Source of the DNA: Gammaproteobacteria bacterium | Lineage (GTDB): Bacteria; Pseudomonadota; Gammaproteobacteria; UBA4575 | Assembly (NCBI GenBank): GCA_965222615.1 | Contig: CBDCUI010000007.1 | Location: forward strand, 512,001-576,000 | Length of the DNA: 64,000 nucleotides | Direction of reading: 5' to 3' | In this document: positions 52,024 through 61,111 of the stretch, piece by piece | How positions within the stretch are numbered: the stretch's first letter is position 1 | Layout of the letters: each line of letters opens with the position of its first letter | Notes under the pieces: generated by a model | Database searches by the model: none | What the model was told of the DNA's origin: nothing | What the model saw: only the letters and a program-made list of their open reading frames with translations | Made by a program: the position numbers and the translations under genes

Positions 52024-53436
52024 TTACGATTGAAACAACCCCAACTCTTGAATCTTTCTGGTTAAGGTATTTCTGCCCCAACCTAAAAGTTTAGCGGCTT
52101 CTTGGCGTTTGCCTCCCGTCTTGCGCATGGCTGCTTTGATCATCACTGCTTCAAACAAAGGGGTTGCTCGATCCAGAATACCGTCCTCACCTTTAGACAA
52201 CTCATGTTCTGCCCATTCATTTAATAAACTTTGCCAATCCGATGTTTCTTCAGTAGACATCTCGTCTTTAAGCATTTCTGCTGGCAAGTCTTGCATGCGA
52301 ATTTCATTACTGGATGCCATTACTGTTAACCAACGGCATACATTTTCTAACTGGCGAACGTTGCCTGGCCATTCTAATGCACTTAGATACTCTACAACTT
52401 CTGCAGTGAGTTTTTTTGGCTCTGCCGCTAACTCCTGTGCAGAACTTTTCATAAAGTGTTTTAACAGAATAGGAATATCTTCTTTACGTTCACTCAAAGT
52501 AGGCAGGTGAATTCGAATTACGTTTAGACGATGAAATAAATCTTCACGAAATTTTCCACTTTTAACCCTTGCTTCCAAATTTTGATGTGTAGCCGCAATA
52601 ATGCGCACATCGGCCTTGATCGGCTCATGCCCACCCACACGATAAAAATGTCCATCCGACAACACACGTAGTAAACGTGTTTGTAAATCTGCAGGCATAT
52701 CTCCAATTTCATCTAAAAATAATGTGCCTTGATGGGCTTGTTCAAAGCGCCCCTTGCGCTGCGTCTGTGCTCCTGTAAATGCGCCTTTTTCATGCCCGAA
52801 CAATTCGGATTCTAATAAGTCACGAGGAATCGCCGCCATATTCAATGCAATAAATGGTCCTTGGGCACATGGGCTGTGTTCATGCAGTGCCTGTGCGACT
52901 AGTTCTTTTCCCGTTCCTGATGCACCATTGATAAGTACTGTGATATTTGAATTCGATAATCTGCCAATGGCACGAAACACTTCTTGCATGGCAGGCGATT
53001 CACCAATGATTTTTGGTAGCTCTTGAGTAAGTACATTGTCTGTTTCGGTACTTTTGGCTTCGCTCTCATCGGCAGCCAAGCAAGCCCGCTTGGTGAGTTC
53101 CACGGCTTCATCTACATCAAATGGTTTTGGCAAATATTCAAACGCACCTTTTTGATAAGCGCCGACTGCACTTTGTAAATCAGAGTGCGCAGTCATAATA
53201 ATAATGGGTAAGCTTGGGTAATCTGTTTTAATACGATCAAGAAATTCTAATCCATCGATACCCGGCATACGCACATCGGTAAGAATTGCCGATGGTGTTT
53301 GTTGTTCTAATTCACGTATCGCGATACTAGCGGATTCAAAAGTAGTAACCGGTATTTCTGCTTTTTGAAACGCGCGCTCTAAGACCCAGCGCATCGCTTG
53401 ATCATCATCTATTACCCAAACATTCGTACAATTCAT
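52024..53436 (-). CDS. glnG: Nitrogen regulation response regulator NtrC
   Basis: Receiver VIDDD/TDVRMP, GASGTGKE, GAFTGA, FLDEIGD, HTH LGWGRNTLTRK. Confidence 0.98.
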   Translation of the reverse strand: MNCTNVWVIDDDQAMRWVLERAFQKAEIPVTTFESASIAIRELEQQTPSAILTDVRMPGIDGLEFLDRIKTDYPSLPIIIMTAHSDLQSAVGAYQKGAFEYLPKPFDVDEAVELTKRACLAADESEAKSTETDNVLTQELPKIIGESPAMQEVFRAIGRLSNSNITVLINGASGTGKELVAQALHEHSPCAQGPFIALNMAAIPRDLLESELFGHEKGAFTGAQTQRKGRFEQAHQGTLFLDEIGDMPADLQTRLLRVLSDGHFYRVGGHEPIKADVRIIAATHQNLEARVKSGKFREDLFHRLNVIRIHLPTLSERKEDIPILLKHFMKSSAQELAAEPKKLTAEVVEYLSALEWPGNVRQLENVCRWLTVMASSNEIRMQDLPAEMLKDEMSTEETSDWQSLLNEWAEHELSKGEDGILDRATPLFEAVMIKAAMRKTGGKRQEAAKLLGWGRNTLTRKIQELGLFQS

Positions 53437-54750: not shown

Positions 54751-55428
54751 TTAGGGCAAAGTAGGTGGCGGTGGAGGAGGTGGTCGTTGTGGGAGCTTAG
54801 TATTGGTCGGGATATTAAACGAGTTGCTGCCATCACCACTATTGCCTTCATTGTTATCACCGCCTTCACCTCCGTCGTTAGCTGAATTAACAGTATTCTG
54901 CAGACGTGAATAGCGGTGTAATGTGAAACTTACCGGCTCAGAGCTAATTAAAGTACGGCCATTGCGAGCCACGATCGTTGCCTTTACTACATGGGTGCCT
55001 CGATCAACATTTTTTACCGTTACACTACCTTCGGTACCTTTGTAGACTTGTTTACCTCCAAGTATCACAACATATTTGTGACCTCGGCGTGTGTTCAGTG
55101 CCGGGCTAGCTTGAAAGGTAATATTCACTACACCTGAGTTATCACGAATACTCGTATCATTTCCTGGCGCAGTGATGGTTAAAGCTTGATAACCATTATT
55201 CTCTTTTTGTGTAGAGGAGCTCGATGTTGAGCTTGGCGAAGTGGTAAGTGGCTTGGTTTCAATTAATGTAGGTAATTTATCGGTCTTCACCTCTTCAGGT
55301 TGTGCGCATTCAGTAGGATTGTCGGTATATATGGTGTTGCCATCCTTATCTTTGCAGGTATAGATACGTGCCTGAGCGATGTTTACACAGACAATAACGA
55401 CTAGTAGTAATAACAAACTTCCACGCAT
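54751..55428 (-). CDS. DUF4124-domain secreted protein with Ig-like C-terminal part
   Basis: Signal peptide, IYTCKDKDGNTIYTDNP, DRGTH; usual position between glnA and ntrB; Gly/Asn and poly-Pro tail. Confidence 0.75.
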   Translation of the reverse strand: MRGSLLLLLVVIVCVNIAQARIYTCKDKDGNTIYTDNPTECAQPEEVKTDKLPTLIETKPLTTSPSSTSSSSTQKENNGYQALTITAPGNDTSIRDNSGVVNITFQASPALNTRRGHKYVVILGGKQVYKGTEGSVTVKNVDRGTHVVKATIVARNGRTLISSEPVSFTLHRYSRLQNTVNSANDGGEGGDNNEGNSGDGSNSFNIPTNTKLPQRPPPPPPPTLP

Positions 55429-55514
55429 CTTAAAAACTCAGGCTTAAAACTCCATCAACATGAATATAGTACTCTCTGATAGTAATTATGACTCAGGAAT
55501 TGTCGCCCAAGTTG

Positions 55515-55546
55515 CACAAAAAACGCCTCAAATGAGGCGTTTTGTG
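55515..55546 (-). terminator. Rho-independent terminator after glnA
   Basis: AAAACGCCTCA-AA-TGAGGCGTTTT with longer T run on the minus strand. Confidence 0.85.
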
Positions 55547-55579
55547 ACTGAATACTCGAGTTTGTAGGGTTTTAGCAGC

Positions 55580-56989
55580 TTAGCAGCTGTAGTACATATC
55601 AAACTCAATCGGATGGGTAGACATGCGTAAGGCAGTGACTTCATCCATCTTTAAATCGATATAGCCATCAATGCAGTCATCTGAGAATACACCACCAGCT
55701 TTAAGAAAGTCGCGATCGTTATCCAGTGCTTCCAATGCTTGATCGAGTGAAGCACAAACCGTTGGAATTTTTGCTTCTTCTTCAGGCGGCAGATCATACA
55801 GATCTTTGTCAATTGCTGGGCCTGGATCAATCTGATTTTGAATCCCATCTAACCCCGCCATTAACATCGCAGCAAACGTCAGGTATGGATTGCCCGTAGG
55901 ATCACCAAAACGAACCTCGATCCTGCGTCCTTTTGGATTACTCTCATAGGGAATACGAATGGATGCCGAGCGATTGCGCGCAGAATATGCCAGCATTACC
56001 GGCGCTTCAAAACCTGGAACCAGTCGTTTGTAGCTATTGGTACTAGCATTAGAGAATGCATTGATTGCACGCGCATGTTTAATAATGCCGCCGATATAAA
56101 ACATGGCCGTTTGCGAAAGATTACCGTATAGGTCCCCTGCAAATAAATTATCACCATCTTTGACTAAAGACTGATGTACATGCATGCCACTGCCATTGTC
56201 ACCAACGATAGGTTTGGGCATAAACGTAGCGGTTTTACCATAGTTGTGCGCAACATTGAGTACGACATATTTTAAAATTTGGTTCCAGTCTGCACGCTTA
56301 GTCAGGGTGTTATAAAGAGTACCAATTTCGCATTGTCCGGCTGTGCCCACCTCGTGGTGATGTACCTCAACTGTCACACCCATTTCTTCTAATACCTGGC
56401 ACATGGCCGAACGCAAATCTTGTAATGAATCCACTGGAGGCACTGGAAAATAACCGCCTTTAACGCCTGGGCGATGTCCAATATTGCCTTCTTCAAATCC
56501 CTTGTTTGAATTCCAAGCCGATTCATCCGAGTCAATGGCATAGGAAGCACTGGACATTTCATTCAACCATTTGATGTCGTCAAACACGAAAAACTCAGGC
56601 TCAGGGCCAAAGTTAGCGGTGTCGGCAATGCCTGTTGAGCGCAAATAGGCCTCAGCCCGTTTTGCTACCGAACGAGGGTCACGACCGTAACCTTCCATAG
56701 TAGAAGGTTCAAGAATATCGCAGCGTAGAATGAGTGTGGGGTCACTGAAAAACGGATCTATTACCGCCGTGCTTGGATCCGGCATTAATATCATGTCGGA
56801 CTCATTAATTCCTTTCCAACCTGCAATAGAAGAGCCATCAAACATTTTGCCTTTTTCAAAAATATCCTCTTCGATGACTGTAGCAGGTACAGAGACATGT
56901 TGTTCTTTACCTCGTGTATCAGTAAATCGAAAATCAACGAATTTAACATCGTTGTCACTCATCATCTTCATTACATCGCTCGCGGACAT
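55580..56989 (-). CDS. glnA: Glutamine synthetase type I
   Basis: [27 protein letters not shown], adenylylation site DLYDLP. Confidence 0.99.
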
Positions 56990-57073
56990 TAGGTTTCTCC
57001 TTAGCTTTTCGACTCGAATGTTATTCTTATGGTCGTGGTTAATTGCTAACCACGTACTCTCGACATCCTCTAA

Positions 57074-57090
57074 AGCACATTACGTGCCAG
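57074..57090 (-). promoter_or_regulatory. sigma54 promoter of glnA
   Basis: CTGGCACGTAATGTGCT, GG-N10-GC. Confidence 0.88.
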
Positions 57091-57173
57091 TAACATTGGA
57101 TGCACTTTATTGAGGCCAGGGCGGCATTATACGCGGCTTGCAGGCGATAGAAAGATCAATAAAGTAGGTTATT

Positions 57174-57212
57174 TGCACCAGGATAGTGCTTTATAAGCAC
57201 CAGAACAGTGCT
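57174..57212. promoter_or_regulatory. Tandem NtrC enhancer sites
   Basis: TGCACCAGGATAGTGCT and AGCACCAGAACAGTGCT, about 110-150 bp upstream of the predicted glnA start site. Confidence 0.88.
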
Positions 57213-57565
57213 TGTTGTTTGGAATTATTCTGCAGCTCTATAACACAAACGCCAAACTTACACGTTGAGCTTTAGTGAACAATGGAACCCTTGTTCATGG
57301 ATTTTTCCTACACCTCGACTTAGTCAAACATCGAGGACATAAACGCAAATCAATACAAGACTGGAGCATTAACTGCTGAAGAAATTGAACTTAAAAAAGT
57401 AGATATACATCACATCGGCAATGCCGAAATTTGTCACCAAAGGCCAAATTCTGGGGACAAAATTGGTCCAATTTGCGACTAAGGGTGTTTGTTAGCAAAT
57501 GCTAATACACACTTAACCTACCCTATGTCAGTAAGTTAATTACACTACTTCAAGTCGCCAAAAAG

Positions 57566-57582
57566 CTGGCATAGCCCTTGCT
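57566..57582 (+). promoter_or_regulatory. sigma54 promoter of the GGA-rich RNA
   Basis: CTGGCATAGCCCTTGCT, GG-N10-GC; first AGGGA motif lies just after the predicted +1. Confidence 0.78.
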
Positions 57583-57592
57583 CAAATAGCTA

Positions 57593-58030
57593 GTAATAGG
57601 GACGTTTTTATTTGCCAGGGATTGGCGAAACTATTTTAGACAAGGAGGTCAACATGGTCGGCAACACGGACGTACTCACAACATTATATGTTGTATGGAT
57701 CGCCGCTAGTGTAGCAGCGCTGGCTTGGGCCTATCGCGACACAGTGAAACAAAAACTTTGTGGCGTAAAAAAAGGCGCTTAAACACTAACAAGGATTCAT
57801 GGTGATAAGTGTTGAGCTTATCACGATGTGTAAGGATACGGACTTGTATGCAAGTGATACGGATATCTACTTTGCAAATCAAGTCACCATATTTAAGGAA
57901 TTTGCTAATGGTATGGATACCATGGCAAGCAAGGAAGCAACTGAATAGCTCATGCATCAGGAGAGCTTTTTACTTTAAGTCTTAGGGATGAGAGCTGCGT
58001 GACAGGGACGTCAACTCGCAGCTTCTTCAT
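57593..58030 (+). ncRNA. CsrB/Rsm-like CsrA-titrating RNA (candidate dual-function RNA)
   Basis: 15 GGA (14 ANGGA) on + strand versus none on - strand; many in short hairpin loops; ends in AGCTGCG...CGCAGCT hairpin plus pyrimidine tail. Confidence 0.72.
57654..57782 (+). CDS. 42-aa single-TM small protein (not in the ORF track)
   Basis: SD AAGGAGGT just upstream of ATG; MVGNTDVLTTLYVVWIAASVAALAWAYRDTVKQKLCGVKKGA, hydrophobic helix then basic tail. Confidence 0.65.
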   Translation: MVGNTDVLTTLYVVWIAASVAALAWAYRDTVKQKLCGVKKGA

Positions 58031-58114
58031 TCAAACTTCAATATATTCATTCATATGCTGGTCGCAGGACGGACGCATCGCTATACTCACGCTGCGTCAT
58101 TTGCCAGCAAAGAC

Positions 58115-59026
58115 ATGCCAAAGCCTCGATCAACACAAACTCAGATATCTTTTCAAGATCTAGTGCATAAACTTGAACAGTTTTGGGCTGCTCAGGGCTG
58201 TGTAATTGAACAACCGTATGACTTGGAAATGGGTGCAGCAACGTTTCATCCCGCCACATTTTTACGGGCTCTTGGACCAGAGCCTTGGCATGCTGCTTAT
58301 CCACAACCTTGTCGTCGCCCGACCGATGGACGTTATGGAGACAATCCAAATCGCTTGCAGCGTTACTTTCAGTTTCAGGTAATTTTAAAACCCTCACCAG
58401 ATAATATTCAGGATCTCTACTTAGAATCACTAATCAAATTGAATATTGATCCTCTGGTTCACGATATCCGTTTTGTCGAGGATAACTGGGAATCTCCAAC
58501 CTTAGGAGCATGGGGACTAGGCTGGGAAGTTTGGTTGGACGGCATGGAAATCTCTCAATTTACTTACTTTCAACAAGTGGGGGGATTAGATTGTAATCCA
58601 GTCAGTGGAGAAATTACCTATGGACTAGAACGTATCGCCATGTATTTACAAAACAAGGACAGCGTTTACGATTTAATTTGGACACAGCGGCAAGGTAAAG
58701 ACATAAGCTACGGAGAAATTTATCAACAAAATGAAAAAGAACAATCCGCCTATAATTTTGAACATGCCGATACAGAATTTTTATTCGCATCTTTTGATGC
58801 TCACGAAAAAGAATGCAATCAGCTTGTTGAGCTAGAACTTCCTATTGCAGCTTATGACCATGTATTAAAATGTTCACATGCATTCAATTTATTAGATGCG
58901 CGACAGGTGATTTCCGTAACGGAACGACAACAATATATTTTACGAATCCGTCGTTTAGCACAAGCCGTTGCAACAGGTTATTTCGAAAGCCGTGAAAACA
59001 TAAGCTTTCCTTTACTCAACAAATAA
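58115..59026 (+). CDS. glyQ: Glycine--tRNA ligase alpha subunit
   Basis: FQDL...[39 protein letters not shown]; start placed at ATG 58115. Confidence 0.98.
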
Positions 59027-59035
59027 ATTCTAAGC

Positions 59036-61111
59036 ATGAGTGACAAACGAGATTTATTAGTTGAGTTAGGCACAGAAGACTTGCCTGCACGTTTACTATC
59101 CAACCTCACCAATGAATTTGGTGAGAATTTAAAAGCACAATTATCAGATGCAGGACTTGAATTTATTGACTGTAAAGTTTTTTGCACACCACGTAGATTA
59201 GCCATCATTATTGAAGGCCTTGATAGCCGTCAACGAGATCAACAAATACAGCGCAAGGGGCCTAGCAAAGATAAGGCATTTGATAATGAAGGCAATCCAA
59301 CGCAAGCTGCCGTAGGCTTTGCGCGATCATGTGGTGTCGAAGTTGCACAGTTGGAGATTGACCACTCTGAGGCACAACCACGGCTACTCTTTCATGAACA
59401 TAAGCCGGGTGAAAATACTGTAGCGCTCTTACCACAATACTTAGAAACCTCGATAAAAAGATTGTCCATTCCTAAACGTATGCGTTGGAATGAAACCGGC
59501 GCAGAATTTATCCGGCCGGTACGCTGGCTATTGGTTATTTTTGGCACAAGCGTGGTACCCGTTTCATTATTTGGACAGCAAGCAGACAATCTTACTTATG
59601 GTCATCGATTTCACCATCCAGCAAGTATTGAAGTGGGCCAGGTCCTTGATTATGAAAACTTGTTGCATGAAAAAGGACAAGTGATTGCCGACTTTAGTAA
59701 GCGCAGACAATTGATTATCGACCAAGTAAGCTCGTTGGCGAAAAAGGCAAAGGCTAAACCCGCCTATAGCGCGGCTTTACTAGACGAAATCACCAGCTTG
59801 GTAGAGTGGCCACGTGCGTTGTTAGGCAGTTTTGATAAAAAATTTTTAGCCGTACACAAAGAGCTGTTAATCAACACCATGCAGGATAACCAAAAATATA
59901 TCCCTTTATTAAATAAAGAGGGTGAGCTTGCCCCCAAATTTATTGTGATAAGTAACATCGAGAGTAAAAATCCCGAAAGCGTTATACAAGGTAATGAAAA
60001 AGTTATCGTGCCGCGTTTTGAAGACGCGATGTTTTTCTGGAAAAGAGATAAAGGCAATAAACTAGAAGACAATTTAATAAAACTTGAAAGTGTAGTTTAT
60101 GAAAAACAATTGGGTACGCTTAAAGATAAAACTGATCGCATGGTAAAACTTTCTGCTTATTTGTCTAAGTTTACCCATGCGGATCAGTCACATTGTGAAC
60201 GTGCAGCAAAACTAAGTAAGTGTGACTTAGTCACTGAGACCGTGGCAGAGTTTCCAAAACTACAAGGGATTGTGGGTAGAAATTTAGCTTTATTAAATGC
60301 CGAAGAGCAAGAAGTGAGTCAAGCGCTAGAAGAACAATATCTGCCGTTACAAGCAGGCGGTGAATTACCAAACACCACTACAGGACAAACCCTTGCACTT
60401 GCCGATCGCCTAGATACCTTAATTGGAATTTTCGCCATTGGCAAAAAACCGACGGGGCTTAAAGACCCATACGGATTACGACGCGCTTCATTAGCTGTGT
60501 TGCGGATACTAATTGAAAAAGATATTGACCTTGATCTTCGACAAATCTTACAAACCACTGCAAATCTTTTCCCAAAAGACCTCAATGCTGCTTCTGTTGT
60601 TGGTGATGTATATGATTATATTACTGAGCGGTTGCGTGGCTATTTTTCTGATCAGGGTATAGCCATAGATACCGTTGATTCCGTTTTAGCCAATCGCCCC
60701 AACTCACCTAAAGATATCGCCGCACGTGTACAAGCCTTAGGTAATTTTCGCAAATTACCTAATGCTGAAAGCCTTGCTGCTGCTAATAAGCGTATTCGCA
60801 ATATATTGAAAAAAATCGATCGTGACTCAATTGGTCAAGTAAACAAGAGTTTATTGAGAGAAAATGCCGAGAATGACTTAAATGATGCATTAGAAAAACT
60901 ATCTAAAGATGTTGAAATCCATTTTCATCAACATGAATATGAACAAGCGCTAAATAAACTTGCAGACTTGCGTCAGCCTGTAGATACTTTTTTTGATGAT
61001 GTAATGGTAATGGATGAAGATGAGGCATTAAAAACTAACCGTATTGCATTACTTGCTAAAATTGATTCCTTATTTATGCATGTTGCAGATTTCTCAAGAC
61101 TACAGTCATAA
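59036..61111 (+). CDS. glyS: Glycine--tRNA ligase beta subunit
   Basis: LLVELGTEDLP, TPRRLA, FIRPVRW, DPYGLRR, FFDDVMVM. Confidence 0.98.
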   Translation: MSDKRDLLVELGTEDLPARLLSNLTNEFGENLKAQLSDAGLEFIDCKVFCTPRRLAIIIEGLDSRQRDQQIQRKGPSKDKAFDNEGNPTQAAVGFARSCGVEVAQLEIDHSEAQPRLLFHEHKPGENTVALLPQYLETSIKRLSIPKRMRWNETGAEFIRPVRWLLVIFGTSVVPVSLFGQQADNLTYGHRFHHPASIEVGQVLDYENLLHEKGQVIADFSKRRQLIIDQVSSLAKKAKAKPAYSAALLDEITSLVEWPRALLGSFDKKFLAVHKELLINTMQDNQKYIPLLNKEGELAPKFIVISNIESKNPESVIQGNEKVIVPRFEDAMFFWKRDKGNKLEDNLIKLESVVYEKQLGTLKDKTDRMVKLSAYLSKFTHADQSHCERAAKLSKCDLVTETVAEFPKLQGIVGRNLALLNAEEQEVSQALEEQYLPLQAGGELPNTTTGQTLALADRLDTLIGIFAIGKKPTGLKDPYGLRRASLAVLRILIEKDIDLDLRQILQTTANLFPKDLNAASVVGDVYDYITERLRGYFSDQGIAIDTVDSVLANRPNSPKDIAARVQALGNFRKLPNAESLAAANKRIRNILKKIDRDSIGQVNKSLLRENAENDLNDALEKLSKDVEIHFHQHEYEQALNKLADLRQPVDTFFDDVMVMDEDEALKTNRIALLAKIDSLFMHVADFSRLQS

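Follow-up and report, generated by a model that had tools for sequence, protein, structure and literature searches.

The 64-kb window analysed here (the whole stretch of DNA under study, from contig CBDCUI010000007.1 of the gammaproteobacterial assembly GCA_965222615.1) carries, in the 1065-nt spacer between glnA and glyQ (56990-58054), a conserved element that we read as specifying a single sigma54-dependent transcript, which would serve both as the mRNA of a small protein and as a CsrB-like sponge for the translational regulator CsrA. This combined reading is put forward with slightly better than even confidence on the basis of comparative sequence analysis. An earlier note on this DNA had described positions 57566-58030 as a sigma54-dependent CsrB/Rsm-like RNA. 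Comparative evidence supported that assignment, namely the promoter, the conserved columns of GGA motifs, the covarying hairpins, the presence of csrA and an ORF-less form of the RNA in a sister genus, g8. The description of the whole ~430 nt as a non-coding small RNA (sRNA) was overturned, the first third being occupied by a conserved open reading frame (ORF1, 57654-57782) that bears the marks of purifying selection. That the locus is real, conserved and structured is held with high confidence.

The host genome (G000) measures 3.10 Mb at 39% G+C, with a completeness of 99.8%. The comparison set was its GTDB order, which consists of a single family of 56 species in 11 genera (g1 to g11); the clade is an order-level group of mostly uncultured, marine-type gammaproteobacteria.

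The Sigma54 Promoter and Its Upstream DNA

The -24/-12 promoter claimed earlier was recovered as an exact match on the forward strand at 57567-57582 (TGGCATAGCCCTTGCT, TGGCAT-N5-TTGCT), the sole zero-mismatch match to TGGCAYN5TTGCW in the window. It has GG at -24, GC at -12 and the exact spacing between them, and the genome holds both rpoN and activator genes; rpoN was found in 52 of the 56 family genomes. The form TGGCAY-N5-TTGCT is kept in all 20 orthologues as well as at seven loci of g8. From the promoter spacing, transcription is predicted to start near 57593.

No sigma70-like promoter was found in 56900-58300, where shuffled sequences averaged 3.0. The box recognised by GacA/UvrY has the consensus TGTAAG-N6-CTTACA; a single match with three mismatches lies in the spacer, in a non-conserved stretch and at chance level, the window as a whole holding 35 such matches against 36.8 expected.

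Some 95-140 nt upstream of the -24 element stands a 44-nt block on the forward strand (57429-57472, ATTTGTCACCA...GACAAAATTGGTCC), which is kept in 20/20 orthologues, is recognisable in g8 and encloses the inverted repeat ATTTGTC/GACAAAT. Against a matrix derived from the other 19 orthologues the block scored 57, and the next best site in the genome 14. Between the block and the promoter, a conserved group of alignment columns on the same strand (57528-57538, TCAGTAAGTTA) resembles the consensus of integration host factor (IHF), WATCAANNNNTTR.

ORF1 and Its Predicted Orphan Membrane Protein

ORF1 (MVGNTDVLTTLYVVWIAASVAALAWAYRDTVKQKLCGVKKGA; forward strand, stop codon included in the above coordinates) predicts a 42-residue, single-helix membrane protein composed of one hydrophobic helix and a basic tail, the latter probably cytoplasmic. 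Its strong Shine-Dalgarno sequence (AAGGAGGT, 57642-57649, forward strand) lies 5 nt ahead of the ATG and itself contains a GGA; the heptamer GGAGGTC at this site is kept in 20/20 orthologues (as GGAGCTC in L006). A profile built from 19 distinct sequences, with 12 invariant columns, detected ORF1 in 20 of the 56 family genomes, belonging to g1, g2, g6, g9 and g7 (15/15 genomes), and found no match in g3, g4, g5, g8, g10 or g11.

Variable sites across 37 codons fall at codon positions 1, 2 and 3 in the numbers 21, 13 and 33, the mean ratio of non-synonymous to synonymous differences (pN/pS) is 0.24, and pN is lower than pS in every one of the 190 pairs. This pattern clearly points to a coding sequence under purifying selection, and we have little doubt that ORF1 is a gene. 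A second reading frame, ORF2 (57799-57948, 49 aa), was considered as a further gene and rejected: tblastn against the orthologous loci returned only fragments at E>=0.033, and its indels are not in multiples of three.

No Pfam or NCBIfam family was found for ORF1. Its relatives in a collection of 5.8 billion proteins form 36 clusters restricted to close kin, those with a name being called "hypothetical", and HMMER, run exhaustively over 1.84 billion representatives, gave three matches at E<=1e-10 together with one repetitive chance match. Comparison with the Atlas produced no score above 0.84. The ORF1 product is an orphan small protein of the clade.

The GGA Motifs and Their Hairpins

The motif count of the earlier note was reproduced: 57566-58030 holds 15 GGA on the forward strand, 14 of them ANGGA, and no TCC. 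They lie at 57600, 57619, 57644, 57668, 57697, 57793, 57834, 57840, 57861, 57897, 57915, 57933, 57960, 57986 and 58006, and a skew of this size is matched in 0.16% of the 465-nt windows of the 64 kb, all of which overlap the locus. One GGA belongs to the Shine-Dalgarno sequence and two fall inside ORF1; ten are gathered in the 3' non-coding domain (57783-58030, forward strand), a stretch of ~250 nt with no TCC. This domain folds at -74 kcal/mol (z = -3.34), and none of 200 shuffled sequences was equally stable.

An alignment from the ORF1 stop codon to glyQ in the 20 genomes places the GGA motifs in the same columns, with occupancies (of 20) of 19, 15, 15, 15, 19, 20, 18, 20 and 20, so the conservation that the earlier note had made decisive for orthologous spacers is indeed seen; each of the 20 regions has 8-13 GGA and 0-1 TCC. 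When the alignment was anchored on the GGA, the flanks were found to pair in register, at -2/+3, -3/+4 and onward, which is the register of the CsrA ligand RUACARGGAUGU. That consensus was obtained by systematic evolution of ligands by exponential enrichment (SELEX) and carries its GGA within a hairpin loop, according to the accessible part of PMC4347634. Together the 20 regions contain 36 copies of the core ACARGGA, about 5 per kb, against a genome-wide frequency of 0.075 per kb per strand.

The hairpins named in the earlier note, and its closing AGCTGCG/CGCAGCT stem (57993-58023), are all present in the sequence. GGA-anchored windows replaced the raw alignment for the analysis of covariation, which was seen in two hairpins. 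Hairpin He (57908-57923, forward strand, ATGGTA-TGGA-TACCAT) has a GGA invariant in 20/20 and changes on both sides in six of its seven pairs; its covariation score of 0.486 compares with 0.223 +/- 0.039 in shuffles, none of 500 reaching it, and with 0.05-0.18 when the partner is slid. The leader hairpin (57611-57629, forward strand), with a GGA in its loop in 15/20 orthologues, is paired in 84.9% of cells against 75.6% in shuffles; five of its six pairs change on both sides, and its covariation score of 0.361 (0.183 in shuffles) was attained in 0/500. A short U run follows this hairpin, which was flagged as terminator-like, and the two together (57611-57639) could constitute an attenuator dependent on CsrA binding.

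Further hairpins lie at 57640-57651, 57830-57839, 57856-57867 and 58000-58013, all on the forward strand. The terminal module (57980-58023, forward strand), consisting of TCTT-AGGGAT-GAGA followed by the closing stem around GAC-AGGGAC-GTC, is nearly invariant in 20/20 genomes. At the other end of the domain, a conserved AAGGATTCAT follows directly upon the ORF1 stop codon, and only 10-20 nt separate that stop codon from the first conserved GGA.

Distribution and the ORF-less Form in Genus g8

R1, a covariance model covering the final 124 positions of the RNA, matched its own locus at 57902-58025 with 105 bits; each of the 20 genomes with ORF1 proved to have a single copy, at 95-132 bits. Weak full-length matches (26-31 bits) were obtained in 6 of the 16 g8 genomes, all of them in the glnA-glyQ spacer, and blastn added a seventh g8 genome with the RNA. 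The g8 loci have a TGGCAY-N5-TTGC promoter, the same upstream block and IHF-like site, and the RNA directly after; their RNAs are 168-267 nt long, bear 6-12 GGA in hairpins and share the terminal module GAC-A(N)GGA(Y)-GTC. No conserved ORF was found in the g8 RNAs. Since g8 possesses the same promoter and GGA-hairpin RNA without ORF1, the RNA module appears able to work on its own.

Elsewhere in the family, one g8 genome (G023) contains an eroded copy of the element and one g5 genome a short piece, and in four genomes from g3, g4 and g10 the glnA-glyQ spacer is short and lacks the element. A blastn match in g3 (L014) proved spurious. In a tree of GlnA 1-190 joined to GlyQ 33-300 (25 rows, midpoint root only), g8 and g5 are separated from all others at 100/100, and the element-less g3, g4 and g10 are nested among the ORF1 bearers at 95/89. 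The simplest reading is that of an ancestral sigma54 GGA RNA, with a gain of ORF1 on one side (or its loss on the other) and the disappearance of the entire element from the small-genome genera. The order of gain and loss is a matter of inference, because neither the root nor the inner branches are strong.

CsrA and the Search for Other Sponges in the Genome

The csrA gene, on whose presence the earlier proposal hung, was found at G000:C8:997499-997654 (genome, contig and positions; PF02599, 92 bits against a cut-off of 27). It is present in 52/56 family genomes and across all 11 genera. In the g3 genome G012 there are five csrA-type matches, of which one contains an internal TGA; the other matching genomes have one each. 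The 3' domain is likely to bind CsrA, and a sponge action, for which our confidence is lower, seems a little more probable than its opposite.

A genome-wide scan for ANGGA at a strict threshold returned the locus as the only dense non-coding region; at a looser threshold the locus gave 3 of 10 windows. Scanning the genome for a GacA box together with GGA gave 12 weak places. The Rfam models for CsrB and RsmZ had no match across the whole genome, and the best RsmY match, away from the locus, reached 28.6 bits against a threshold of 57. The latter (L137 284-378, G000:C8:469383-469477) lies just after an ORF and consists mostly of a strong terminator; it is probably not an Rsm RNA, because it has only two GGA and a terminator of the kind that attracts several Rfam families.

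Two other places in the genome may be recorded. In a convergent spacer after an ORF stop codon (L135 489-598, G000:C7:374388-374497, minus strand), two perfect GGA-loop hairpins, GCGTCA-TGGA-TGACGC and CGCCA-TGGA-TGGCG, are accompanied by further GGA, with no Rfam match; they may belong to a further CsrA-binding RNA, of small size, or to a 3' untranslated region (UTR). The other (L136, G000:C9:80282-80391, minus strand) is non-coding and has 12 GGA in ~350 nt with several hairpins, again with no Rfam match.

The Candidate Activator

Transcription from sigma54 promoters cannot start without an activator, and one is required here because the promoter is of the sigma54 type. Activators were counted in each genome as PF00158 matches at E<=1e-25. 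The host genome holds six activator-type genes, encoding NtrC, an NtrX-like, a FleQ-like, a FleR-like and a PilR-like protein (the last beside pilS and pilA) and a protein of 503 aa. In G015, a genome listed as 100% complete, the single activator is ntrC, which shares a contig with the locus at a distance of 4.4 kb, and this genome keeps the RNA together with a promoter whose 16 core bases are identical to those of the host locus; NtrC is therefore the likeliest driver. One activator was also counted in G073 (83% complete), in which the RNA is kept, and two in G070.

Two putative NtrC-type enhancer sites, TGCACCAGGATAGTGC and GCACCAGAACAGTGC (57174-57211), are situated between the divergent promoters, with conserved GCAC-N-GTGC pairs; we presume them to be NtrC sites from the site consensus. 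They lie 355-395 nt upstream of the element promoter and are common to it and the glnA promoter, a sigma54 promoter of the glnAp2 type with one mismatch (57074-57089, minus strand, TGGCACGTAATGTGCT) that is kept in 12/12 aligned spacers. From this shared enhancer, NtrC would probably act with the aid of an IHF-like bend. We lean narrowly towards NtrC as the protein that drives the element.

Other activators were considered. The 503-aa protein (G000:C9:112186-113697) has an unassigned 180-aa N-terminal domain with one weak match, in G065, at 26% identity; it was rejected as the conserved driver, that domain being missing in 54 of the other 55 genomes, all close kin included. A sequence resembling the block at 57429-57472, TTTGTCAC-N17-GGACAAA, occurs ~190 nt upstream of a pilin-like gene (G000:C8:976391-976640) that has a sigma54-like promoter, TGGCATATCTTCTGCA, and GACAAAATTTGTC is found between the pilR-like gene and pilA (C8:388650-389030). 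PilR was set aside as the activator and counts as a weak lead only, the pilin site ranking 7th-8th in an unbiased matrix scan with chance-like scores; a second block-like site was not found in five complete relatives.

Proposed Function and Alternative Explanations

Drawn from the computed features (the promoter, the constraint on ORF1, the GGA positions, the covarying stems, the ORF-less homologue and the presence of csrA and rpoN), the proposed model is that of a transcript of ~430 nt, which would run from near 57593 to the stem at 57993-58023 or shortly beyond. Its 5' part would be an mRNA with a GGA in a leader hairpin, another in the Shine-Dalgarno sequence and a 42-codon ORF for a membrane protein. 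Its 3' part, 57783-58030, would form an array of ~8-10 short hairpins with A(N)GGA loops, to which several CsrA dimers could bind and so be titrated from their mRNA targets. With NtrC of the neighbouring glnA-ntrBC locus as the activator, nitrogen limitation would at once reduce free CsrA and bring about synthesis of the small membrane protein, and CsrA may feed back on ORF1 translation via the GGA of the leader and the Shine-Dalgarno sequence. A broader version, in which nitrogen status is wired into the Csr network by an ancestral NtrC/sigma54-driven sponge that in one lineage acquired at its 5' side ORF1, whose product has no relative outside the clade, is offered tentatively, at somewhat less than even odds.

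Several results weigh against this interpretation. In the single-sequence minimum free energy (MFE) fold of 57593-58030, just 7 of the 15 GGA have at least two unpaired bases and 5 of 15 are in closed hairpin loops, and a g7 orthologue (L009) folds with a z of only -1.45, 14 of 200 shuffles being equally stable. The GGA in the whole-transcript fold have a mean unpaired probability of 0.57, compared with 0.39 over all bases. For the complete 3' alignment, RNAalifold returned only 25 pairs with a covariation term of -0.82 kcal/mol, a result which is uninformative because the hairpin arms are misaligned between clades. The Rfam comparison proposed in the same note was negative, no Csr/Rsm model matching at the locus even at E<=1. 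A U-rich terminator 3' of the last stem was not found in the host genome and its closest kin, and the 3' end of the RNA is therefore uncertain; in the g7 genomes, a clear intrinsic terminator lies between the RNA and glyQ. As regards the activator, the host has five activator-like genes besides ntrC, and the block at 57429-57472, for which no likeness to NtrC sites or to any placeable motif was found, is unlike the adjacent NtrC sites, so that the true activator or a co-regulator may differ. A GacA-like response regulator also exists, at 178 bits, below the family cut-off of 280, and no uvrC was found beside this GacA/UvrY-like regulator. Moreover, many GGA on an mRNA may just as well point to a CsrA target as to a sponge.

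The last point leads to an explanation to which we assign a minor share of probability, that of an ordinary small-protein mRNA under CsrA repression, whose 3' UTR hairpins would set its own stability or protect its 3' end with no meaningful titration of the CsrA pool; whether an RNA can serve as a sponge is decided by how strongly it is expressed. ORF1 is clearly coding on the evidence of its substitutions, and a GGA in the Shine-Dalgarno sequence in 20/20 orthologues with another in the leader loop in 15/20 is the classic layout of a CsrA-repressed gene. However, g8 has a GGA-hairpin RNA behind the same promoter without an ORF, which argues that the array is kept for its own sake, and 8-13 sites per molecule far exceed the need of control in cis and match the sponge RNAs, of which Pf3 and Pf2 have 9 and 21 GGA (PMC11882849, in the text available). 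The element might instead represent two genes, with the sigma54 promoter serving ORF1 alone and a separate promoter, in or after ORF1, serving the GGA RNA, or else a 3' domain processed into a 3'-UTR-derived sRNA. We regard this as unlikely. Such sRNAs are common, GlnZ from the glnA 3' UTR being a nitrogen-regulated example (PMC13501541, in the part accessible), and the conserved AAGGATTCAT could be the sign of RNA processing or of a new 5' end. The sigma70-like promoter that a second gene would call for was not found in the stretch scanned, however, the gap between the stop codon and the first conserved GGA is short, and in g8 the RNA comes directly under the sigma54 promoter. With no internal promoter found, a single transcript for ORF1 and the GGA array is suggested, and processing of its 3' domain would be compatible with the dual mRNA-sponge model too.

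Less probable still is that the hairpins offer GGA, which is also a glycine codon, to a partner other than CsrA, either the anticodon of tRNA-Gly(UCC) in a leader or sensor for glyQS, or some other RNA-binding protein. The element does stand directly upstream of glyQS in every genome that has it, and in the host no strong terminator was found between it and glyQ. Nevertheless, g3, g4 and g10 have glnA and glyQ adjacent without the element, and glyQ keeps its own -10 hexamer, TATACT, both there and here; an intrinsic terminator separates the RNA from glyQ in g7; and the conserved flanks ACA-R-GGA-U-G-U are specific to CsrA sites. A scan of 55000-61000 with all Rfam families at E<=1 gave just a chance match on the promoter, with no T-box or other leader.

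Comparison with Known Systems

The closest counterparts of the 3' domain are CsrB, CsrC, RsmX, RsmY and RsmZ (Rfam clan CL00106), to which the Pseudoalteromonas RNAs Pf1-3 may be added (PMC11882849, in the text available). The element shares with them the many A(N)GGA hairpin loops on one strand with no TCC, a csrA gene in the genome, an intergenic site, and the size and number of sites (~250 nt, 8-13 GGA). It differs in matching no Rfam sequence or structure model, in having a sigma54 promoter instead of a sigma70 promoter with a GacA/UvrY box, in carrying a conserved 5' ORF in its own genus and four others, whereas the CsrB/Rsm type is non-coding (as is the g8 form), and in the want of a U-tract terminator in its own genus. 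Three features of the CsrB/Rsm type, namely the model match, the GacA-type promoter and the non-coding nature, are those in which the element departs from it.

On the side of the promoter, the nearest likeness is to NrsZ of Pseudomonas aeruginosa, which has a TGGCAC-N5-TTGC promoter in the glnA-ntrBC region and modular stem-loop repeats, and is induced by NtrB/C and RpoN under nitrogen limitation (PMC4253122, in its accessible portion). As described there, NrsZ differs in base-pairing on rhlA, in being processed to ~40-nt and 140-nt forms, in having no ORF and in lying tail-to-tail with ntrC rather than divergent from glnA; the string "GGA" is absent from the text of that paper. CrcZ and CrcY of Pseudomonas are likewise sigma54-dependent RNAs that sequester a global translational repressor through repeated motifs, CrcZ being an sRNA from an RpoN promoter (PMC4253122) and a competitor for Hfq (PMC13501541), again according to the portions available. 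Unlike what is proposed for the element, CrcZ has A-rich motifs, acts on Hfq/Crc rather than through GGA on CsrA, responds to the activator CbrB and is non-coding.

Translated mRNAs that titrate CsrA are described in the accessible text of two papers, for flaA of Campylobacter jejuni (PMC4894983) and the Salmonella fimAICDHF 5' UTR (PMC13501541); these have few sites in the 5' UTR of a large structural gene, whereas the element would be a dedicated 250-nt array after a tiny ORF, with an ORF-less form in relatives. The joining of a small ORF and a regulatory RNA on one short transcript recalls SgrS/SgrT, Spot 42/SpfP, AzuCR and SR1, and sgrT, like ORF1, is found in just part of the phylogenetic range of its RNA. 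The known dual-function sRNAs of this kind base-pair, whereas the element would bind CsrA, and the 2025 review from which these cases are taken mentions the CsrA-binding class of sRNAs only as one where small ORFs may await discovery (PMC12612679, in the portion available for all these points). No sigma54- or NtrC-driven CsrA sponge was found in the abstracts and openly available passages searched.

Neighbouring Genes

As the earlier note had it, the element diverges from glnA, the glutamine synthetase gene, which occupies 55580-56989 on the minus strand. The order on that strand is glnA, a gene for a DUF4124 protein (54754-55428), ntrB and ntrC (52024-53436), the last identified with 731 bits by the NtrC model, whose cut-off is 559. 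Downstream of the element on the forward strand, a long glyQ ORF starts at 58055 and is followed by glyS, the two being the glycyl-tRNA synthetase genes. This long ORF is probably over-extended, as alignments to the GlyQ of g7 begin at its residues 13-26. A probable -10 element for glyQ, TATACT, lies outside the RNA at 58082-58087 (forward strand), the hexamer being kept also in genera without the element, and the true start is probably the ATG at 58115 (58082-58117 for the whole feature, forward strand), which yields a GlyQ of 303 aa.

Implications for the Csr Network

CsrA sponges are the main bacterial means of setting the activity of this global translational regulator. To our knowledge, the sponges of gammaproteobacteria studied so far are non-coding and driven by BarA/UvrY (GacS/GacA). 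If the reading proposed here is true, this clade would use sigma54, most likely with NtrC, thereby coupling the control of carbon storage and lifestyle by CsrA to nitrogen limitation. In addition, no CsrA-sequestering RNA before it would have been at the same time an mRNA, with a conserved gene for a small protein, and a regulatory RNA may here have been the birthplace of a small protein. The sister lineages with and without the ORF would then offer a natural experiment on how a small protein and a regulatory RNA become joined in one transcript.

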